From: a virus
Lineage: Duplodnaviria; Heunggongvirae; Uroviricota; Caudoviricetes
Strand: one strand, 5' to 3'
IMG/VR virus record: IMGVR_UViG_2563366960_000009
Coordinates: 1-37,772 of that record
Length of the DNA stretch: 37,772 bases
This document shows, piece by piece, positions 4,639 to 36,776 of the stretch (positions are counted from its first letter, which is position 1; each line of letters starts with the position of its first letter). Both the position numbers and the translations under genes were made by a program. The notes under the pieces were generated by a model that saw only the letters and a program-made list of their open reading frames with translations, had not been told where the DNA came from and searched no databases.

Positions 4639-4649
4639 AGGACCGCGAC

Positions 4650-4853
4650 ATGAACAAAAAGACCTGGTTTCGCGCATACATGTGGGCGCTGGTATGCGTC
4701 CTCGTCTCTCTCATTCTGTATGCAGGACTACTCCCCCGAATGATTTCATCAGACAGCTCCTTCCTGGTATTGCTGGGAATTTTCATTGCCATGCTGTACC
4801 CGGCAGGCGTTGTTCGCCTTTTCAGTAAGTACATCAAGGAAATCAAACAATGA
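4650..4853 (+). CDS. Small two-helix membrane protein, partner of the SPFH lipoprotein
   Basis: 67 aa with two hydrophobic helices (WALVCVLVSLILYAGLL and FLVLLGIFIAMLYPAGVV); stop overlaps the ATG of the next gene (ATGA). Confidence 0.55.
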   Translation: MNKKTWFRAYMWALVCVLVSLILYAGLLPRMISSDSSFLVLLGIFIAMLYPAGVVRLFSKYIKEIKQ

Positions 4854-5680
4854 AGAAATTCAAACTCTTTCAGATTCTCCCGCTTTTTGCCGCCATCCTG
4901 CTGGTTGGTTGCGATCGCGTTGAGCCAGGTAATGTGGGCATCAAAGTCAACAAACTGGGCGACGACAAAGGCGTCGGTGAAGTGGTTGGCGTTGGCCGCT
5001 ACTGGACAGGCTGGAATACAGAGGTTTACATCTTCCCGACCTTCAAACAAATGAAGACTTACGATGAGCCGTTCAACTTCCAGATGAGTGACGGCACAAC
5101 CATCGGCTATCACATCGGCGTGGCCTACAAAGTTGATCCATCCAAAGTTACCACGGTGTTTCAGACCTACCGCAAAGGCGTGGACGACATTACCGACACT
5201 GACCTGCGCCAGAAGATCGCCGATGCACTCAACCGACTGGCCAGCAAAATGACCACCGATAAGTTTATCGACGGTGGTAAGTCTGAACTGCTGGATTCAG
5301 CACTTAAAGATATTCAGGAAGAGATGACCCCCATCGGTATTCAGGTCATGAGCCTCTCTTATGTCGGTAAACCGGAATATCCGCCAACCGTTATCGACAG
5401 CATTAACGCCAAAGTCACGGCAAACCAGAAAACCCTGCAACGCGAACAGGAAGTCAAGCAACGCGAAGCAGAAGCCAACATGTTGCGCGCAGAAGCTGCC
5501 GGACAGGCCGATGCCATTCGCACAAAAGCCCAGGCTGAAGCCGACGCCATTCGTTTACGCGGCGAAGCTCTGCGCCAGAATCCCGGTGTTATGGAGCTGG
5601 AAGCGATCAACAAATGGAACGGCACGCTGCCGCAATACATGACCAGTAACACCGCTGTTCCGTTCGTTCCCGTGAAGTAA
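4850..5680 (+). CDS. SPFH/band-7 (prohibitin/stomatin-like) lipoprotein
   Basis: 276 aa. N-terminal signal peptide with lipobox LLVGC. C-terminal Ala/Glu/Arg/Gln-rich coiled-coil (QREQEVKQREAEANMLRAEAAGQADAIRTKAQAEADAIRLRGEALRQNP) typical of SPFH proteins. Confidence 0.7.
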   Translation: MKKFKLFQILPLFAAILLVGCDRVEPGNVGIKVNKLGDDKGVGEVVGVGRYWTGWNTEVYIFPTFKQMKTYDEPFNFQMSDGTTIGYHIGVAYKVDPSKVTTVFQTYRKGVDDITDTDLRQKIADALNRLASKMTTDKFIDGGKSELLDSALKDIQEEMTPIGIQVMSLSYVGKPEYPPTVIDSINAKVTANQKTLQREQEVKQREAEANMLRAEAAGQADAIRTKAQAEADAIRLRGEALRQNPGVMELEAINKWNGTLPQYMTSNTAVPFVPVK

Positions 5681-5842
5681 TGACACCCGGCCAGTGCAAA
5701 CCGCTGGCCGGAGCAGTATCAGGATTTTTTAGTATGCCGTTCTCACAAAAAAACCGCTTGCCATGCCGCAATCAGTCAGGTTACATTTTCGCTGCACCTC
5801 ATAAAACGGGTGCCGGGTTTCGCAGCCTGCTGACTACAAGAG

Positions 5843-5874
5843 CGCACAACCGCGCCAGCGGTTTTTTTGTGCGT
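5843..5874 (+). terminator. Putative intrinsic terminator (GC stem followed by a 7-T run) inside a 370-bp non-coding region
   Basis: gcgcacaaccgcgccagcggtttttttgtgcg: stem aaccgc/gcggtt then TTTTTTT. Confidence 0.35.
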
Positions 5875-6047
5875 ACTGTATTGCCACGTTTTTTTCGCGT
5901 CAGAATTATGGCGGGGCGTACGGGGCCGACTTCGGTCGGGCCGGGATCTCTTGTAGCCGGTACTGCGAACCTCGTACGTCTCGCCACCCACAGTTTCGCA
6001 GCTCTGGATGGTGAGTTTTCACAACTTACTACAAGAGGCCACATATC

Positions 6048-9621: not shown

Positions 9622-10581
9622 ATGAAAATTTGTATCGACGACGGCTCCACCAACATCAAGCTGGCATGGACTGAGAACGGCGAACACCGCAACGCCATCA
9701 GCCCGAACAGCTTCAAGTCGGAATGGTCTGCGCCGTTCGGTGGCTCGCAGCCTGCGAACTACATGCTTGATGGCGTGCGCTATGGTTTTGATCCGGTCAG
9801 CGATCGCTTTGTCCAGACGACCGACACGCAATACCAGTACAGCGATGTGAATGTAATCGCCATTCACCACGCGCTGGTCAAATCAGGCATCACGCCACAG
9901 GAGGTGGATGTGGTTGTCACCCTGCCACTGAGCGAGTATTTCGACACAAACGCCCAGCCGGATATGACCAACATCAACCGCAAAAAAGCGAACGTTATGC
10001 GCCCGGTGGAGTATCAGAACAGTGAGGCATTCACTATCCGTAACGTGCGGGTTATGCCTGAATCCATTCCGGCTGGCTTTAAAGCACTGGCTGACATGAG
10101 TCCGTTTGAATCCCTGCTGATTGTGGATTTGGGCGGAACCACGCTGGATGTGGCAAAGGTTCAGGGGCAACTGGCAGGTATCAGCCAGGTGTTTTGCGAT
10201 CCACACGTAGGCGTTTCTCTGATGGCCGATGCCGTGCTGTCGGTGATGGCCACCAACGGTATGCGCACCAGTCACCACATCGCCAATACCATTATCGAAC
10301 ATCGCCACGATGAAGCCTGGCTGCGCCAGCACATCCACAATGACGCGCATTACGCCAGCCTGATGGCAGTTATTCGTGAAAAGGAGGAAACACTGAAACA
10401 ACGCGTGATCCGCGCGCTGGCGGGTTTTTCGGGTTACGGGCGGGTGATGGTTGTAGGTGGAGGAGCGGAGATTGTGGCACCCGCTATCCGCGAAGCCTGC
10501 GGAGTTAATGCGACTTTCATCGCGGACGGGGTGCCACAATTTGCTCTGGTTAATGGGCTGTACGCAATGGACAAGGAGTAA
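9622..10581 (+). CDS. parM: ParM/StbA-like actin-family partition ATPase
   Basis: 319 aa. N-terminus MKICIDDGSTNIKLAW closely resembles plasmid R1 ParM (..FIDDGSTNIKLQW, from memory); later LLIVDLGGTTLDV and VMVVGGGAEIV match actin-fold phosphate-binding motifs. Confidence 0.8.
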   Translation: MKICIDDGSTNIKLAWTENGEHRNAISPNSFKSEWSAPFGGSQPANYMLDGVRYGFDPVSDRFVQTTDTQYQYSDVNVIAIHHALVKSGITPQEVDVVVTLPLSEYFDTNAQPDMTNINRKKANVMRPVEYQNSEAFTIRNVRVMPESIPAGFKALADMSPFESLLIVDLGGTTLDVAKVQGQLAGISQVFCDPHVGVSLMADAVLSVMATNGMRTSHHIANTIIEHRHDEAWLRQHIHNDAHYASLMAVIREKEETLKQRVIRALAGFSGYGRVMVVGGGAEIVAPAIREACGVNATFIADGVPQFALVNGLYAMDKE

Positions 10582-10585
10582 ATCA

Positions 10586-10897
10586 ATGACGACACCAACC
10601 AGACGGATAAGTTTCTATCTGAAGCCCGCCGCCGTCAAGAACGAAGGTGAAGCATGCGCCTGGCTGGACAGCCTTACACCAGAAGCGCGCAAAAGCGGCC
10701 AACGCGTGGCTTTTCTGGCCGGGCTGGCACTTCTGAAAATGAATCCGGCAGAGGCTTACCGACTGGCTGCATGGGCTGATGATGAAGCGTTATCAGTGAC
10801 ACAAACCAGGACAGAACGCCCCGCGTCACAGCCAGTATCAACCGCACAGATAACCAGTCAGATGGCCGGAAATATCCGGGCGTTATTTCCCGAATAA
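10586..10897 (+). CDS. parR: ParR-like centromere-binding adaptor
   Basis: 103 aa directly after parM. RRISFYLKP...LDSLTPEARKSGQRVAFLAGLALL and the C-terminal NIRALFPE align by eye with R1 ParR (RRTIAFKLNP...LDSIPQGERSRLNRAALTAGLALY...LRSLFPKE, from memory). Confidence 0.7.
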   Translation: MTTPTRRISFYLKPAAVKNEGEACAWLDSLTPEARKSGQRVAFLAGLALLKMNPAEAYRLAAWADDEALSVTQTRTERPASQPVSTAQITSQMAGNIRALFPE

Positions 10898-10902
10898 CAC
10901 AA

Positions 10903-10926
10903 CATCAGGGCGCATCCGCCCTGATG
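10903..10926. promoter_or_regulatory. Perfect 10-bp inverted repeat (catcagggcg-catc-cgccctgatg) between parR and the ClpX-finger gene
   Basis: Read directly; no T-tract follows, so it is more likely an operator or processing site than an intrinsic terminator. Confidence 0.35.
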
Positions 10927-10960
10927 ACTTTAACCCGGGAACATAAACAAGGGGGACACA

Positions 10961-11296
10961 ATGCAACGCATTGACAGAGAAAAAGCGCAGCGACTGATTG
11001 AGCGGATGGAAGCGCTGGCGAAAGAAGAAAATGTCAACATCCAAAAAATAGCTGAATGTGGCCAGATAGTTCTTCGTCGTGAAAAAGACCTCAAACAACT
11101 GATGTCTGGCGAAACCAGCAAAACATGGACTTCAGGTGAGGAGACGATTTATTGCAGCTTCTGCAATAAATCCCAGTACGAAGTCACAAAGGTGATTGCC
11201 GGACCGTCTGTTTACATCTGCAATGAGTGCGTTGATTTGTGCAATGAAGTTATCAGGAGAGAAGTGACAGACCATGAAGAAAAAACGCATGAATGA
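10961..11296 (+). CDS. Small protein carrying a ClpX-type N-terminal C4 zinc-binding domain and no AAA+ module
   Basis: 111 aa. Residues about 64-100, [35 protein letters not shown], closely match the ClpX zinc-binding domain consensus (CxxC...CxxC). N-terminal half is a predicted helical region. Confidence 0.7.
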
Positions 11297-11462
11297 CGAA
11301 TTTGACGGCTTTTAATTTTATCGGGGCGCACTGTCGCCCTGCATGGAGAAAAACAATAAAAAAGATGAATAACTGCTCATGTCAGACGCGCTGCGGGCAA
11401 GTCTGGCACCCTGCCCTGTCTCCGCAAAGGCTGTTGTCTTAACACGACAGAGTATGCCAGCA

Positions 11463-11870
11463 TTAAATATAATCTTCTTCGTAGTCGCTGATTAATTCAT
11501 TGCCATAATCAGACAGCAATTTCAAAGCAAAGGTAACTTCCTCAAGGGTAGCTATCCCCATTGCTGAAAACACCGTTAATTTAACCAGCAGCAGGGAGTT
11601 TGAAAGTTCGGAAGAGTTCATCATTAAAAATATTGATGCAGCCTGAAAAGCTGTGCGTTTATTCCCATCATGAAAGGCATGAGCCTTGGCTATACCAATC
11701 AAATACATAGCAGCCAGAGCATGAATATCATCAACCCCTTCATAGTAGTGTAGTGTCCTGACGCGATTTAAAGCACCTTCAAGTAGCCCGTCATTGGCAT
11801 TTCCGCTCTGGGGTAAAGTTTCAGCATGGATACGTTCTACTTGTTCTTTTGACAAAAACACTATGTCCAT
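11463..11870 (-). CDS. doc: Doc-family (Fic fold) toxin
   Basis: 135 aa with the Doc motif HAFHDGNKRTA (HxFx[DN]GNKR); start overlaps the stop of the upstream antitoxin (ATGA). Confidence 0.8.
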   Translation of the reverse strand: MDIVFLSKEQVERIHAETLPQSGNANDGLLEGALNRVRTLHYYEGVDDIHALAAMYLIGIAKAHAFHDGNKRTAFQAASIFLMMNSSELSNSLLLVKLTVFSAMGIATLEEVTFALKLLSDYGNELISDYEEDYI

Positions 11871-12226
11871 CAGTTATCCTCAAGCTTTTTAATGATATCC
11901 GCATGTTTTTCTCTTGTACGCTTCATTGCATCTTCAAAAGACAATCCTTTTTTTCTCTGTGCGACAAGAGCTGGATGACGTTTTTCCAGATCTCTCACTG
12001 CATTTATTAAGAGTGGTTGCTTCATTTTGTTTATTTGATCCCGCAGTTTTTTGGTTTTGCCAAGGACAGCCCGTATTTCAGGACTAAGATCAGAACCAGC
12101 AAGAACAACATCCTTCCCTCCCTGCGCCGTGATAACGACACTGCCACCGGAAGAAAGGTAATCCAGAATTTCACTCAGGTTCTCACGAAATTCATCATCA
12201 GTTACAGTTTTCATATTCATTTCCAT
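11870..12226 (-). CDS. phd: Phd/YefM-like antitoxin
   Basis: 118 aa immediately upstream of and translationally coupled to doc; N-terminal region is consistent with a Phd/YefM fold. Confidence 0.65.
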   Translation of the reverse strand: MEMNMKTVTDDEFRENLSEILDYLSSGGSVVITAQGGKDVVLAGSDLSPEIRAVLGKTKKLRDQINKMKQPLLINAVRDLEKRHPALVAQRKKGLSFEDAMKRTREKHADIIKKLEDN

Positions 12227-34683: not shown

Positions 34684-34771
34684 CAGGCAGAATTGCCGGA
34701 GTAACAAAAAAGCGATAGATTACGTGCGGGTGCCTTTCGGCTGATGGTCGGAGGGAATACCCGAAGGCCAG

Positions 34772-34957
34772 ATGTGGAAAGGCCCCGAGTCAACTTTAAC
34801 GTTAACCCGAGGCCCTAACCATCTACCCTTAGCAAGTGATAGGTTAGCGCCTCCCCGAAAAAGGAGCAAGCGCTATGTCGCAAAAATCGCTTACGGCCAT
34901 CACATTCTGCGTGACGGCAATCCTCATCATCTGGATGCTGCACGGTTCGCTGTGTGA
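34772..34957 (+). CDS. Possible mok-like overlapping reading frame of a hok-type locus
   Basis: 61-aa ORF starting about 100 bp upstream of the hok-like ATG and overlapping it in a different frame, as in hok/mok/sok loci. The protein itself has no recognisable features. Confidence 0.3.
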   Translation: MWKGPESTLTLTRGPNHLPLASDRLAPPRKRSKRYVAKIAYGHHILRDGNPHHLDAARFAV

Positions 34958-35015
34958 AATACGGATGAGCTTCTGGGGAGCGGAGTTTGCGGCGTTCTTA
35001 CAGTGTAAGCAGTAA
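34875..35015 (+). CDS. Hok/Gef-family type I toxin peptide
   Basis: 46 aa, below the ORF-track cutoff: MSQKSLTAITFCVTAILIIWMLHGSLCEIRMSFWGAEFAAFLQCKQ. N-terminal TM helix and the SLCEIR...AAF signature shared with Hok; AAGGAG site upstream. Confidence 0.6.
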   Translation: MSQKSLTAITFCVTAILIIWMLHGSLCEIRMSFWGAEFAAFLQCKQ

Positions 35016-35024
35016 GGAAACCGC

Positions 35025-35046
35025 GACGGGGGAGTAATCCCCCGTC
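35025..35046 (+). terminator. Perfect 9-bp stem-loop (gacggggga-gtaa-tcccccgtc) just after the hok-like stop
   Basis: Read directly; could be the 3' structural element of a hok mRNA or a terminator, though no U-tract follows. Confidence 0.4.
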
Positions 35047-35277
35047 AATCGGTTGCTAGGGTAAGGTCGATAAGGCACCCTATCTCACAGCTCTAAATGC
35101 AAAAATTCCATGAAACTGTGGGATTTTTGCATCACATACTGATACAGACCAGCCCTTCTATATGCCTCACTCTATACCAGCTAATCAATTGACACTTATC
35201 AATAAAAATAAATCTGATAAAATCAAAATGTTTTGTAACAAATATCAACTCGTATTAATCCAAAGGAGGCGGATTAC

Positions 35278-35610
35278 ATGGCATTAATCAAATGTCCTGA
35301 ATGCCAGAAAGAGGTGAGCGATTCAGCATTGTATTGCCCTGCTTGTGGTAAACAACTGCAAAAACTTAAGCGTTCATTTTTTGGACGGATCATTAAGTGG
35401 GTTTTTATATTATTTAATATTTTTATGATCTATACGCTTTTAGTTGGACTAGGAGGCACTAGTGAAATAATAAATAATGCCACATCCGATGCCGAAAAAG
35501 CCGGTGCAGTTATTGGTACAGGCTTAGGTTTAATTACCATTGGAAGCTTATGGGTTATTGGCGATATCATTATCGGAATTTTAGTATTTCTTACTAAACC
35601 AAAGGGATAA
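35278..35610 (+). CDS. Zinc-ribbon membrane protein (N-terminal CxxC-x10-CxxC, two transmembrane helices)
   Basis: 110 aa; CPECQKEVSDSALYCPACG then two long hydrophobic helices; AAGGAGG site; markedly AT-rich codon usage. Confidence 0.7.
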   Translation: MALIKCPECQKEVSDSALYCPACGKQLQKLKRSFFGRIIKWVFILFNIFMIYTLLVGLGGTSEIINNATSDAEKAGAVIGTGLGLITIGSLWVIGDIIIGILVFLTKPKG

Positions 35611-35614
35611 TAAA

Positions 35615-36508
35615 ATGAAAAATATAATTTTTTCTATAGGTGCATCATTTATATCAATTAGTGTACTGCCTGTTCACGCAGCAACTGAACATAAGAACTT
35701 CAATGCAGTACTCCAGTGCCGAGCAATAGAAAATAATAAAGACAGACTTTCTTGTTACGATAAGTCAATACAACCGACTCGAACGAAAGTTGCTGAAAAA
35801 TTCGAAAGCAGAGATCAATGCCCTGATGAGAAAGATGATGATAGACGTTTATCTTGTTATGATCGTTTCTTTTCTCCAACATTTACTCCATCTGTAAACT
35901 CAAAATCTAAAACGGAAAAGCCAGTAACAACAGAGGCTCAGCAACCAAATCTTTCTGAGATATCTAAATGTCGTGCAGAAAATGATAAAGAAGCCAGACT
36001 AAACTGCTACGATAAACTATTCCCACAGGATAAAATCGCTCAAGCTGAATCAAAATTAGAGAAAGCCACAGATGTAGGAAAATGGCACACATCCATTACT
36101 ACATCGCCAATTGATGATTCGAAAAATGTAATTTTATCGTTAGAAAGTGATGATTATATCAGAACTCCATTTGGAGAAGCGGTTACTCCTACTCTTTTTA
36201 TAGCTTGCCGAGAAAAGAAAACCGAAGTATTTCTTAGTTGGGATGTATATTTAGGCCTTGAACAAACCAGCATGCTTTATCGCCTTGATAAACAGAAAGC
36301 AGTTGAGCGAAACTGGCTAGTATCTACAGATACAAAGGCTGTTTTTTATAAAGGTAATGACATTGATTTCATCCGAAAACTAGCCAACTCAAGCAAAATG
36401 TATACAAAAATAACGCCTTATAATGAGAGCCCCGTAAGTGCAACTTTCAATTTAAACGGCCTGTCAAACGCGCTAAAACCGCTTCAAGCTGCTTGTAACT
36501 GGAAATAG
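35615..36508 (+). CDS. Secreted protein with three Cys-pair repeats and an uncharacterised C-terminal domain
   Basis: 297 aa; signal peptide ending VHA; repeats CRAIENNKDRLSCYDK, CPDEKDDDRRLSCYDR, CRAENDKEARLNCYDK; AT-rich; 4 bp downstream of the zinc-ribbon gene. Confidence 0.7.
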   Translation: MKNIIFSIGASFISISVLPVHAATEHKNFNAVLQCRAIENNKDRLSCYDKSIQPTRTKVAEKFESRDQCPDEKDDDRRLSCYDRFFSPTFTPSVNSKSKTEKPVTTEAQQPNLSEISKCRAENDKEARLNCYDKLFPQDKIAQAESKLEKATDVGKWHTSITTSPIDDSKNVILSLESDDYIRTPFGEAVTPTLFIACREKKTEVFLSWDVYLGLEQTSMLYRLDKQKAVERNWLVSTDTKAVFYKGNDIDFIRKLANSSKMYTKITPYNESPVSATFNLNGLSNALKPLQAACNWK

Positions 36509-36536: not shown

Positions 36537-36580
36537 ACAGATAACACAAAGCCCGTGAAAACGGGCTTTGTGTTATCTGT
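36537..36580. repeat. 19-bp perfect inverted repeat (acagataacacaaagcccg-tgaaaa-cgggctttgtgttatctgt) after the cassette
   Basis: Read directly; no flanking U-tract on either strand; 12 bp from the right att repeat. Confidence 0.5.
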
Positions 36581-36610: not shown

Positions 36611-36776
36611 GCGCTGACATAAATCCTTTTAAATCAATAAATTAAGTCATCATTTTTTTCATCAACAAGGATTTTCACGTTTGTGTTACCTGTATGAGAC
36701 GAGAGTTAACCAGACAAGTGTGCCATAATCTCGCGGCCAGGCATACTTGCGAAGATTTCAGGTATAAGGATACGTA

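Follow-up and report, generated by a model that had tools for sequence, protein, structure and literature searches.

A very probable hok/sok-type toxin-antitoxin module of the 46-aa Hok subfamily among the accessory cargo of a P2-like Escherichia coli prophage

Introduction

The hok/sok (parB) system of plasmid R1 is the paradigm for type I toxin-antitoxin modules of the Hok family. In R1, translation of mok as far as the hok Shine-Dalgarno (SD) sequence was reported to be mandatory, and toxicity was lost when the final 3' stem-loop in the truncated mRNA was mutated, an effect that was ascribed to exonuclease sensitivity (PMC9841398). Genes of the hok type have also been reported to be enriched in prophages. 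For hokW-sokW of the Stx2 prophage Sp5/933W, type I toxin-antitoxin function was established by experiment; Hok was made on prophage induction and phage release was approximately doubled (Takada et al. 2021, PMC8621323).

Hok homologs have recently been clustered and assayed by Escalera-Maurer et al. (bioRxiv 10.1101/2025.08.07.668861, v2, 2026), where "cluster 72" was described as a high-abundance cluster that also includes the 933W-type variant 72_1589. Toxicity was found for 42 of 45 homologs, and the only ones named as non-toxic were 19_179, 60_1482 and 69_1540; peptide 72_1621, for which the clone pAZ3-72_1621 was made so that toxicity could be assayed under arabinose induction, is absent from these three (bioRxiv 10.1101/2025.08.07.668861). 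The same study describes a disulfide between the core cysteine and a second, C-terminal cysteine or, alternatively, a tyrosine editable by TadA. Coding sequences alone were analysed there, and Mok, Sok and mRNA structure were explicitly left aside (bioRxiv 10.1101/2025.08.07.668861).

Here a locus encoding a peptide identical in sequence to 72_1621 is described from IMG/VR virus record IMGVR_UViG_2563366960_000009, of which positions 1 to 37,772 (the whole stretch analysed, hereafter the window) were studied. An initial annotation made from the sequence had proposed an intact Hok-family type I toxin locus carried as prophage cargo, with an antisense Sok RNA expected across its leader.

Results

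Prophage context and distribution

In this P2-like prophage (Peduoviridae) of E. coli, the locus is situated between ogr, which lies upstream, and attR. A 20-bp core shared by attL and attR was found, with attR at 36656-36675. The initial annotation had placed the locus at the prophage end, which is correct in so far as it is near the right end, but hok lies about 1.6 kb inside attR and two cargo genes stand in between. Likewise, the interval first given for it (34684-35070) positioned the locus correctly but was slightly short on the right, where the fold-back inhibitory element (35065-35080) and a terminal hairpin (35097-35132) extend beyond it; the functional unit reaches at least 35080.

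Homologous DNA was found in about 1750 of 5426 complete E. coli genomes, and the ORF was called Hok/Gef among the records listed. The places of the subfamily were almost all chromosomal (2847 of 2866). Strain BCE049 was considered as the source of the window: its hok region was 100% identical to the present one, but identity over the prophage was only 99.2-99.8% and the window contains 1.1 kb more. A scan of one genome per species yielded only six loci, three of which are probably E. coli contamination (a Planococcaceae MAG and assemblies of Vagococcus and Xanthomonas), and therefore added little diversity.

The Hok peptide

The hok coding sequence (34875..35015, plus strand) specifies the 46-aa product MSQKSLTAITFCVTAILIIWMLHGSLCEIRMSFWGAEFAAFLQCKQ, which is hydrophobic from residue 6 to residue 22, contains the SLCEIR motif and has cysteines at positions 12, 27 and 44. 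The 46-codon ORF, the transmembrane-like stretch and the motif were thus all present as first described. The peptide matched Pfam PF01848 (HOK_GEF) over residues 7-44 with 29.9 bits against a cutoff of 22 (E = 4.1e-7), so that the alignment to Hok/Gef peptides suggested in the initial annotation scored above the Pfam gathering score, and PHROG 251 over its full length with 80.6 bits (E = 1e-22). A peptide failing to align with Hok, or a disrupted locus, had been named as grounds for abandoning the reading; the peptide passes Pfam Hok/Gef and the locus is intact. In RefSeq the same ORF is named "Hok/Gef family protein" (WP_000078916.1), and the description of the locus as unannotated therefore applied only to the ORF track from which it had been made. 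Family membership is established by these matches.

Identity of the peptide was 43% with K-12 HokA, 39% with R1 Hok and 31% with HokW. Positions C12, T14, S25, C27, E28, R30, E37, A39, A40 and F41 are invariant positions in common with R1 Hok; in an alignment with R1 Hok and relatives, C12, T14, C27, E28 and E37 were invariant and L26 was kept in five of six sequences. Their counterparts C16, T18, L30, C31, E32 and E41 are the conserved residues of the published Hok logo. The second, C-terminal cysteine is hard-coded, being Cys44 within LQCKQ as in HokA. The best NCBIfam match was the HokA equivalog NF007290, at 34 bits against a cutoff of 89, which makes the peptide a relative and not an ortholog of HokA; by sequence, the cluster 72 Hok appears closest to HokA.

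The hok mRNA and its two alternative folds

The putative hok promoter (34693..34721, plus strand) was assigned from sequence reading and conservation and consists of a -35 TTGCCG (34693-34698), a 17-nt spacer and a -10 TAGATT (34716-34721), with a predicted +1 at G34728. The -10 was TAGATT, TAAATT or TAGAAT in all 60 distinct IMG/VR relatives scored, and a -35 beginning with TTG at a 17-nt spacer was present in 55 of them. A generic sigma-70 promoter and terminator scan flagged neither the hok promoter, which matches 8 of 12 consensus positions and was missed for that reason, nor the Sok promoter described below; both were therefore assigned via their position relative to R1 and their conservation.

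The hok mRNA has a core of about 353 nt (34728..35080, plus strand) with tac at its 5' end and fbi at its 3' end, as delimited by the start of the Rfam model, by the fold, and by homology with Stx-phage copies, which extends over about 34707-35080. The Rfam model RF01794 ("sok", a hok-leader model) matched 34728-34888 over its whole length (model positions 1-157) with 42.7 bits and E = 3.8e-8. The RNA family scan proposed in the initial annotation was thus significant locally but below the gathering score of 59; at the gathering threshold neither a hok nor a sok family was returned for the whole window, and the leader was found by the permissive scan only.

In the full-length fold (z = -6.4 to -6.7) the 5' and 3' ends were paired in both the minimum-free-energy and the centroid structures. 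As a positive control, an R1-like locus was folded in the same way, and its full-length form likewise had paired ends. At the predicted 5' end, the translational activator tac (34728..34742) pairs with 35065-35080 in the full-length molecule and with 34774-34786 when the 3' end is truncated. The first partner is the tac-complementary fold-back inhibitory element fbi (35065..35080), of which GGCACCC is kept in relatives; in the tac/fbi helix 92% of cells were paired across 14 relatives, and most pairs were invariant. The second is a ucb-equivalent box (34774..34786), which is bound to GAGGCC (34809-34814) in the full-length fold and has the C.A mismatch geometry of C74/A106 in R1 (described in PMC9841398); its stem with tac was paired in 98% of cells across the 14 relatives, with one compensatory pair.

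The anti-SD CCUCC (34850-34854) and the hok SD AGGAG (34862-34866), together 34850..34866, were paired with each other in the full-length fold, and masking of the stretch covered by Sok gave this pairing once more. When the truncated RNA was left free, GAGG (34809-34812) instead held the anti-SD CCUC (34850-53), tac was on 34774-34786, and the loop 34824-37 was unpaired in silico with p > 0.9. The hok start region (34875-34891) was predicted in both conformations to lie in a conserved long-range helix with 34979-34995. Across the 14 relatives 92.7% (full-length) and 94.3% (truncated) of cells were paired, as compared with approximately 40% in slid controls, although these counts are inflated by the fact that the structures were derived from the present sequence. 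Double changes were seen in 18 and 14 pairs of the two structures, respectively, and the helices of the switch are thus supported by covariation across relatives. The present analysis thus shows the two alternative folds in silico, together with their conservation and covariation.

Hairpins of the 3' UTR

The perfect 9-bp stem-loop first noticed 3' of the stop codon was confirmed at 35025..35046 (plus strand). Its arms, GACGGGGGA (35025-35033) and TCCCCCGTC (35038-35046), enclose a GUAA loop, and together with three flanking pairs they gave -22.1 kcal/mol (z = -4.7). Across the 14 relatives 99% of cells were paired, and compensatory changes were found in four of the nine pairs. The stem lacks a following U-run and is therefore no intrinsic terminator. 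Within the 3' UTR of the hok mRNA it is an internal structural element that has been conserved. As judged by comparison of sequences, the ORF and this hairpin are far above chance expectation.

Further downstream, an AU-rich 15-bp terminal hairpin (35097..35132, plus strand; -18.1 kcal/mol, z = -5.1) stands where many relatives have CCCGCAGCG..CTGCGGGTTTTCTTTTT. Because the canonical terminator that comes after fbi in many relatives is replaced here by a hairpin without a U tail, the exact 3' end of the mRNA is uncertain. The generic scan placed a minus-strand "terminator" on the 3' hairpin and made no other call at the locus.

The predicted Sok antisense RNA

The candidate Sok promoter (34841..34869, minus strand) has a -35 TTGCTC (reverse complement of 34864-34869), a 17-nt spacer and a -10 TAACCT (reverse complement of 34841-34846). 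At the homologous position in R1 stands the Sok promoter TTGCGC-17-TATCCT. All 59 distinct loci scored had the same -10, and in 54 of these a -35 starting with TTG stood at 17 nt. The antisense promoter prediction that the initial annotation had called for was blank in the generic scan, but candidate hexamers stand at the R1-equivalent position, with a 17-nt spacer and the invariant -10. The conservation of both promoters is established here.

From the positions of the promoter and hairpin, a Sok-like RNA of about 60-65 nt is predicted at 34772..34834 (minus strand), in which an unpaired 5' tail leads into a 16-bp hairpin (34816 to 34779); its predicted fold has -32.7 kcal/mol (z = -5.7). Its putative target, the sokT loop (34824..34837, plus strand), contains a YUNR-type UUAG; in the full-length fold 35054-35063 covers this loop, through a helix in which five pairs carried compensatory changes across the 14 relatives, and in the truncated one it becomes a free 14-nt loop. 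The stretch comprising the Sok target and the 5' recognition sequence was hypervariable, with 22 variants among the 59 distinct loci scored. Conserved promoters, compensated switch helices and a diversifying Sok recognition sequence together form the pattern expected of a module under selection.

The mok-like reading frame

A 61-codon ORF overlapping the hok start in another frame was confirmed at 34772..34957 (plus strand). The hok ATG is one base beyond a codon boundary of this frame, which is the register of mok and hok in R1. The ORF product had no match in Pfam, NCBIfam or PHROG, and similar proteins were limited to six sporadic unnamed calls among 5.8 billion, which form no family. A GAGG at 34809..34812 (plus strand) was identified by alignment to an R1-like locus and by the folds as the counterpart of the R1 mok SD, and no start codon follows it.

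Discussion

Based on the results of this study, the locus is very probably a type I toxin-antitoxin module of the hok/sok type, intact and belonging to the 46-aa Hok subfamily, which a P2-like E. coli prophage carries as accessory cargo. The core of the initial annotation is upheld by the Pfam match, the match to the leader model, and the conserved tac/fbi pairing, tac stem and candidate Sok promoter. That the identical peptide is toxic has been reported, in the sense that 72_1621 belongs to the set tested in the preprint and is outside the three named exceptions.

By analogy with R1, the module could work as follows. Transcription from the promoter at 34693-34721 would yield a stable mRNA of about 350-400 nt, in which tac (34728-34742) is clamped onto fbi (35065-35080). 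In this closed form, 35054-35063 would mask the Sok target (34824-34837) and the hok ribosome-binding site would be paired with the anti-SD (34851-34854). Slow 3' trimming, back to the hairpin at 35025-35046, would remove fbi; tac would then move onto 34774-34786, the anti-SD would be taken by GAGG (34809-34812), and the target loop would open. A short, unstable Sok-like RNA transcribed on the minus strand (from about 34834 to 34772) from the invariant promoter may bind the open loop and turn the mRNA off. Once the supply of Sok ended, the 46-aa peptide would be made and inserted into the inner membrane, and the cell would be killed or lysed. The 3' processing, the expression of Sok and the cleavage by RNase III that this scheme would involve are all modelled on R1, as is any biological role, for which prophage retention by post-segregational killing, help in lysis at induction as with hokW-sokW, and exclusion of other phages are the candidates.

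The part of mok in this scheme is the point at which the locus and R1 may differ. A mode exactly as in R1, in which the 61-codon ORF (34772..34957) is a genuine mok whose translation opens the hok start and is blocked by Sok, would be favoured by several features: the ORF is open in the present copy and in the R1 register relative to hok, a GAAGG lies 4 nt 5' of its ATG, the ATG is at the 3' edge of the Sok-complementary stretch, a conserved helix encloses the hok start and could be opened by an upstream ribosome, and translation of mok as far as the hok SD is a requirement in R1 (PMC9841398). The frame and the register called mok-like in the initial annotation do exist, but the start codon at the R1 position, 7 nt after GAGG, was missing from all relatives examined, and the subfamily does not conserve the frame. 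An ORF in the mok register that begins at the counterpart of the ATG at 34772 entered hok in only 9 of 69 phage loci, and in 39 of the 69 no upstream ORF in any frame reached the hok SD. In one relative (L011) a TGA comes directly after the conserved ATG; the G-to-A substitution behind this stop is compensated in the tac stem, which points to a constraint on RNA structure and not on coding. The scarcity of similar proteins in the databases points in the same direction, and the R1 mode appears unlikely for this locus. Since the R1-position start is absent and the frame is closed or startless in most relatives, the 61-codon ORF is probably incidental, and it is probably not required. As a tentative proposal, which we regard as possible but far from secure, the 46-aa hok loci of cluster 72 may be a mok-less variant of hok/sok, in which GAGG serves purely as an anti-anti-SD, Sok bound at 34772-34834 releases the anti-SD (34851-54) to clamp the hok SD again while the duplex is also cleaved, and the 61-codon frame is an accident of indels in the loop of the Sok hairpin.

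Another explanation is that the module is intact in sequence yet silent, a passenger without a role that is transcribed but not activated on loss, as was reported for the chromosomal hokA, hokB and hokC. Both the missing canonical terminator in the present variant and the lack of a conserved mok are in keeping with it. However, 56 of 58 distinct phage loci retain the 46-aa ORF without truncation, promoters and switch helices are conserved with compensation while the Sok recognition stretch diversifies, the identical peptide was assayed and is outside the three homologs named as non-toxic, and the prophage module hokW-sokW is active at induction; silence is accordingly the less probable of these two alternatives, and an improbable one. 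As for the ORF and hairpin being chance features of the intergenic spacer that separates ogr from the gene after it, the ORF is indeed short (46 codons) and generic scans lent no support to a plus-strand transcription unit. The agreement of Pfam, PHROG and RefSeq on Hok/Gef, the homologous DNA in about 1750 of 5426 E. coli genomes, and a fold with z = -6.4 and covariation leave this with a negligible probability, and it is regarded as refuted by the family matches and the conservation.

The hok/sok module was already known and nothing here is new in kind. The locus is ordinary in view of its annotation in public genomes and of the identical peptide in the toxicity-tested set of the 2026 preprint, and apart from correct annotation its importance is small. 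The residual value lies in a common Hok subfamily without a conserved mok, as against the R1 paradigm in which mok translation is reported as mandatory; a mutational test of mok could tell whether hok/sok control runs without a leader peptide. For the prophage itself, hok/sok would be a third stabilisation-type module, beside ParM/partition and Phd/Doc, which fits the reported enrichment in prophages.

Comparison with known systems

With R1 hok/sok the locus shares a small single-helix membrane toxin with an L-C-E-I-R core, the pairing of 5' tac with 3' fbi, the tac/ucb stem that forms once the 3' end is truncated, and a target hairpin of the form GAGGC...GCCUC whose loop is of the YUNR type. 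Also shared are the stable hairpin directly after the stop codon and, in the same place, a candidate cis-antisense promoter in which TTGNNN and TA(A/T)CCT are separated by 17 nt. The two differ in that R1 Hok has 52 aa instead of 46, with 39% identity over 31 residues, and ends in Y-E-S where the present peptide ends in QCKQ with its hard-coded second cysteine. The mok SD GAGG of R1 has a start codon downstream, whereas none is present here and the overlapping frame is unconserved. Unlike that of the R1 paradigm, the leader is under the Rfam gathering threshold, and the R1 system is plasmid-borne while the present type is prophage-borne.

Among named homologs HokA, from the hokA/sokA locus of the E. 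coli chromosome, stands closest (43% identity over the full length); both its cysteines are hard-coded and its C-terminus is AAFL-x-CK, as here. The K-12 hokA leader is cut short by IS150, and the comparison with HokA covers the peptide.

The hokW-sokW system is, like the present one, a prophage-borne hok/sok module, but a different locus. The RefSeq phage label "MokW-like" had suggested that the locus could be hokW itself, and this was ruled out: hokW is another gene, encoding a 51-aa, HokD-like peptide (MKQQKAM...) with 31% identity over 35 residues to the 46-aa Hok. The published hokW primers encode MKQQKAM...ESEK (PMC8621323), and HokW was placed in the HokD cluster as 35_712 (bioRxiv 10.1101/2025.08.07.668861). 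Stx phages carry a 46-aa relative of the present type as well, downstream of lom, which is unannotated in AF125520. The label "MokW-like host killing" (PHROG 251) on 46-aa peptides is therefore a misnomer that misleads annotation, and the 46-aa Hok should be kept distinct from the published HokW.

Results

The initial annotation had proposed a Hok-family toxin locus within 34684-35070, and this identification was correct. A 46-codon ORF is present in that interval at 34875..35015 (+), and its 46-aa peptide, MSQKSLTAITFCVTAILIIWMLHGSLCEIRMSFWGAEFAAFLQCKQ, passed the Pfam Hok/Gef model (29.9 bits vs a cutoff of 22) and matched PHROG 251 over its full length (80.6 bits). HokA was the top-ranking NCBIfam model, yet with a score of 34 against an equivalog cutoff of 89. 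Pairwise identity was 43% to K-12 HokA, 39% to Hok of plasmid R1 and 31% to HokW. The family-conserved residues C12, T14, L26-C27-E28 and E37 were all found and, as in HokA, both cysteines are hard-coded. Of 58 distinct sequences (the window plus IMG/VR loci), 56 kept the ORF intact.

The locus is an ordinary, previously annotated and catalogued member of the classic family, and the description of the gene as unannotated holds only for the ORF track used there. The 601 bases around it are 100% identical to those of E. coli BCE049, a strain with a near-identical prophage, where RefSeq names the same ORF 'Hok/Gef family protein' (WP_000078916.1). Homologous DNA occurred in ~1750 of 5426 complete E. 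coli genomes, in up to nine places per genome and nearly always on the chromosome, and the ORF carries a Hok/Gef annotation in the records listed. Among 5.8 billion proteins searched, 46-aa clusters named 'Hok/Gef family protein' numbered in the dozens; they came from Escherichia, Shigella and Salmonella, with one more from Klebsiella. Near-identical copies were also present in assemblies labelled as a Planococcaceae MAG, Vagococcus sp. and Xanthomonas pisi (loci L013, L014 and L017), the last on an 857-bp contig; these most likely represent enterobacterial contamination. In a catalogue of 32,532 hok loci the identical peptide is 72_1621, of a high-abundance cluster, and was cloned as pAZ3-72_1621; 42 of the 45 homologs assayed were toxic upon induction, and 72_1621 is absent from the three named as non-toxic (bioRxiv 10.1101/2025.08.07.668861). 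According to the same preprint, hok is enriched in prophages (23% observed vs 5% expected) and occurs in 9.3% of Escherichia phages.

A conserved module spanning ~34707 to 35080 emerged when the locus was aligned to 15 relatives and to an R1-like locus from a plasmid. A predicted hok promoter (34693-34721, +; TTGCCG, 17 nt, TAGATT) is separated by six bases from the downstream GGGTGCC at 34728, a position that coincides exactly with the start of the Rfam hok-leader model in an RNA family scan. The predicted transcript 34728-35083 gave a fold with z = -6.4 in which the first 15 nt (tac, the mRNA 5' element, 34728-34742) pair with the 3' fold-back element fbi (35065-35080); the clamp was kept when the downstream hairpin was added, and the ends were likewise paired in an R1-like control folded in the same way. 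In this closed form, GGCC.C at 34781-86 paired with GAGGCC at 34809-14, 34824-34834 with 35054-35063, and the hok SD GGAG (34863-66) with CUCC (34851-54). In the RNA truncated after the 3' hairpin, tac moved to 34774-34786, CCUC at 34850-53 was captured by GAGG at 34809-12, and 34824-34837 became a free 14-nt loop with a YUNR-type UUAG. A conserved 15-bp helix between the hok start region (34875-34891) and 34979-34995 was part of both predicted conformations.

Covariation was evaluated in 14 distinct aligned relatives, with slid pairing partners as the control. Since the window sequence itself served to derive the structures, the percentages of paired cells are somewhat inflated (92.7% for the closed structure vs 38-46% in slid controls, 94.3% for the open structure and 99% for the 9-bp hairpin 3' of hok), and the double changes are the stronger support for the folds. 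Both-side changes were found in 18 pairs of the closed structure, vs 4-12 when slid, and in 14 pairs of the open one; covariation was clearest in the helix masking the Sok target, with five compensatory pairs, and in the 9-bp hairpin.

The perfect 9-bp stem noted earlier beyond the stop codon was confirmed (35025-35033 with 35038-35046, loop GUAA); with three flanking pairs it reached -22.1 kcal/mol (z = -4.7), and four of its nine pairs were compensatory among these relatives. No U-run follows it in the sequence, and it is therefore a conserved internal 3' UTR element and not a terminator. In R1, weakening the last stem-loop of the truncated mRNA abolishes toxicity, which was attributed to exonuclease sensitivity (PMC9841398). 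Homology ends ~10 nt past fbi in P88-type relatives and exactly at fbi in Stx phages, and many relatives carry a canonical terminator, CCCGCAGCG..CTGCGGGTTTTCTTTTT, ~15-20 nt past fbi. The window variant retains only the 3' half of this terminator, the 5' half being replaced; an AU-rich 15-bp hairpin without a U tail (35097-35132, +; -18.1 kcal/mol) stands at its position, and the location of the mRNA 3' end is uncertain. The terminator change coincides with zinc-ribbon/TagO cargo downstream.

A candidate Sok promoter on the minus strand (-35 TTGCTC, reverse complement of 34864-69; 17-nt spacer; -10 TAACCT, reverse complement of 34841-46) occupies the position of the R1 Sok promoter (TTGCGC-17-TATCCT) in the alignment. 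Neither the hok nor the Sok promoter was flagged by a generic promoter scan. Among the distinct IMG/VR loci scored, the Sok -10 was invariant (59/59), a TTG-starting -35 stood 17 nt from it in 54, and the 22 nt directly downstream, which give the predicted 5' recognition tail of Sok and, on the plus strand, the target loop, existed in 22 variants. This pattern agrees with a functional antisense promoter whose target specificity diversifies, and such diversification would make sense with several copies per genome. The predicted Sok-like RNA would run from ~34834 to 34772 (-) and fold into a 16-bp hairpin behind a free 5' tail (-32.7 kcal/mol, z = -5.7), and we infer that it is the antisense RNA expected across the leader in the initial annotation.

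The window represents a P2-like (Peduoviridae) prophage, with a left-end integrase, Cox, a replication endonuclease, P2-type capsid and tail genes, gpD and Ogr. The 20-bp direct repeat TTTTCATCAACAAGGATTTT, the attachment-site core present at both ends of the prophage, is found upstream of the integrase in BCE049 (locus L012, 3887-3906) and at window 36656-36675, and exists as a single copy in K-12 at the 5' end/start of pdxB, which places the insertion there, between pdxB and flk. The hok locus is thus near attR, as its assignment to the prophage end implied, but ~1.6 kb inside it, with two cargo genes between. The first encodes a membrane protein with a zinc ribbon (35278..35610, +; PHROG 6586, function unknown), the second a product named 'type VI secretion system-associated protein TagO' by RefSeq (35615..36508, +; PHROG 1848, function unknown). 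P88-type relatives are without these genes and end directly after the hok fbi. Just past the TagO-like gene and ~75 bp before attR, a perfect 19-bp inverted repeat (36537-36580; ACAGATAACACAAAGCCCG, TGAAAA loop, CGGGCTTTGTGTTATCTGT) may be a terminator or part of an att arm. In the early region, isrK (5794-5868, +; 66.7 bits) and C4 antisense RNA (5904-5991, +; 81.1 bits), both above the Rfam gathering score, lie directly upstream of a 'derepression protein' homolog, and the region resembles a C4 antisense immunity module of the P1/P7 type, here within a Peduoviridae background. A segment of ~1.1 kb (4639-5743), including ORF 4850..5680 (276 aa), is missing from the otherwise 99.2-99.8% identical BCE049 prophage, so that the window prophage belongs to a strain or prophage variant that is closely related to BCE049 but distinct from it.

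Discussion

The 61-codon ORF reported to overlap the hok start as a mok-like frame does exist (34772..34957, +), and the hok ATG begins one base after a codon boundary of the mok frame, a register shared with R1; the frame is, however, not conserved in relatives. The mok start codon of R1 lies 7 nt past GAGG, and translation of mok through to the hok SD is reported to be mandatory for hok to be translated (PMC9841398). Neither this locus nor any aligned relative has a start codon after GAGG, and the 61-codon ORF starts 48 nt upstream of the R1-type position. Its ATG is conserved at the nucleotide level, and the frame from it runs into hok in only two of the 16 loci fetched and in 9/69 of a set comprising the window and 68 IMG/VR loci. 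In 39 of these 69, no upstream ORF starting with ATG, GTG or TTG reaches the hok SD in any frame. The status of the frame tracks indels in the Sok hairpin loop. In one fetched locus (L011) TGA directly follows the conserved ATG, and the stop-making G-to-A change is compensated in the tac stem, so that the ATG is constrained by RNA pairing and not by coding. No family match was found in Pfam, NCBIfam or PHROG, and the protein search gave only six sporadic look-alikes. The mok-like ORF thus probably has an incidental origin. Mok is also described as hard to define by those who compiled the Hok catalogue (bioRxiv 10.1101/2025.08.07.668861), and the lack of a conserved mok in the 46-aa Hok subfamily is the sole mildly interesting residue.

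Identity of the 46-aa ORF with hokW was ruled out. The hokW-sokW module of prophage Sp5, the one studied by experiment, encodes, according to the paper's primers, a 51-aa HokD-like peptide, MKQQKAM...ESEK (PMC8621323), listed as 35_712 in the preprint table (bioRxiv 10.1101/2025.08.07.668861). The second hok of Stx phages, downstream of lom, is a 46-aa relative; in the original GenBank record of phage 933W (AF125520) it stands at L003 1670-1810 without annotation. RefSeq phage records call these 46-aa ORFs 'MokW-like host killing', the PHROG 251 name; peptides so labelled are homologous to Hok and not to Mok, and they are distinct from the published HokW.

The biological role could be prophage retention, lysis help at induction, as shown for hokW-sokW (PMC8621323), or interference with other phages. 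Besides hok/sok, the prophage encodes ParM (9622..10581), accompanied by a partition/stability protein, and, on the minus strand, a type II toxin-antitoxin pair of Phd/YefM-Doc (11463..12226), both annotated in BCE049, and with these modules present stabilization is a reasonable guess for hok/sok. Three stabilization-type modules thus occur in one P2-like prophage (window 9622-12226 plus hok).

An R1-type mechanism is most likely, in which a stable, self-inhibited toxin mRNA would be slowly activated from its 3' end and the activated mRNA neutralized by an unstable antisense RNA. When the Sok-covered stretch was masked in silico, the anti-SD re-paired with the hok SD and start codon, which points to a possible direct action of Sok on the ribosome-binding site of hok itself. 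The end pairing predicted here reproduces the R1 tac/fbi clamp, the C.A mismatch in the 34781-86/34809-14 pairing is that of R1 C74/A106, and both conformations described for R1 match the closed and truncated folds of this locus (PMC9841398).
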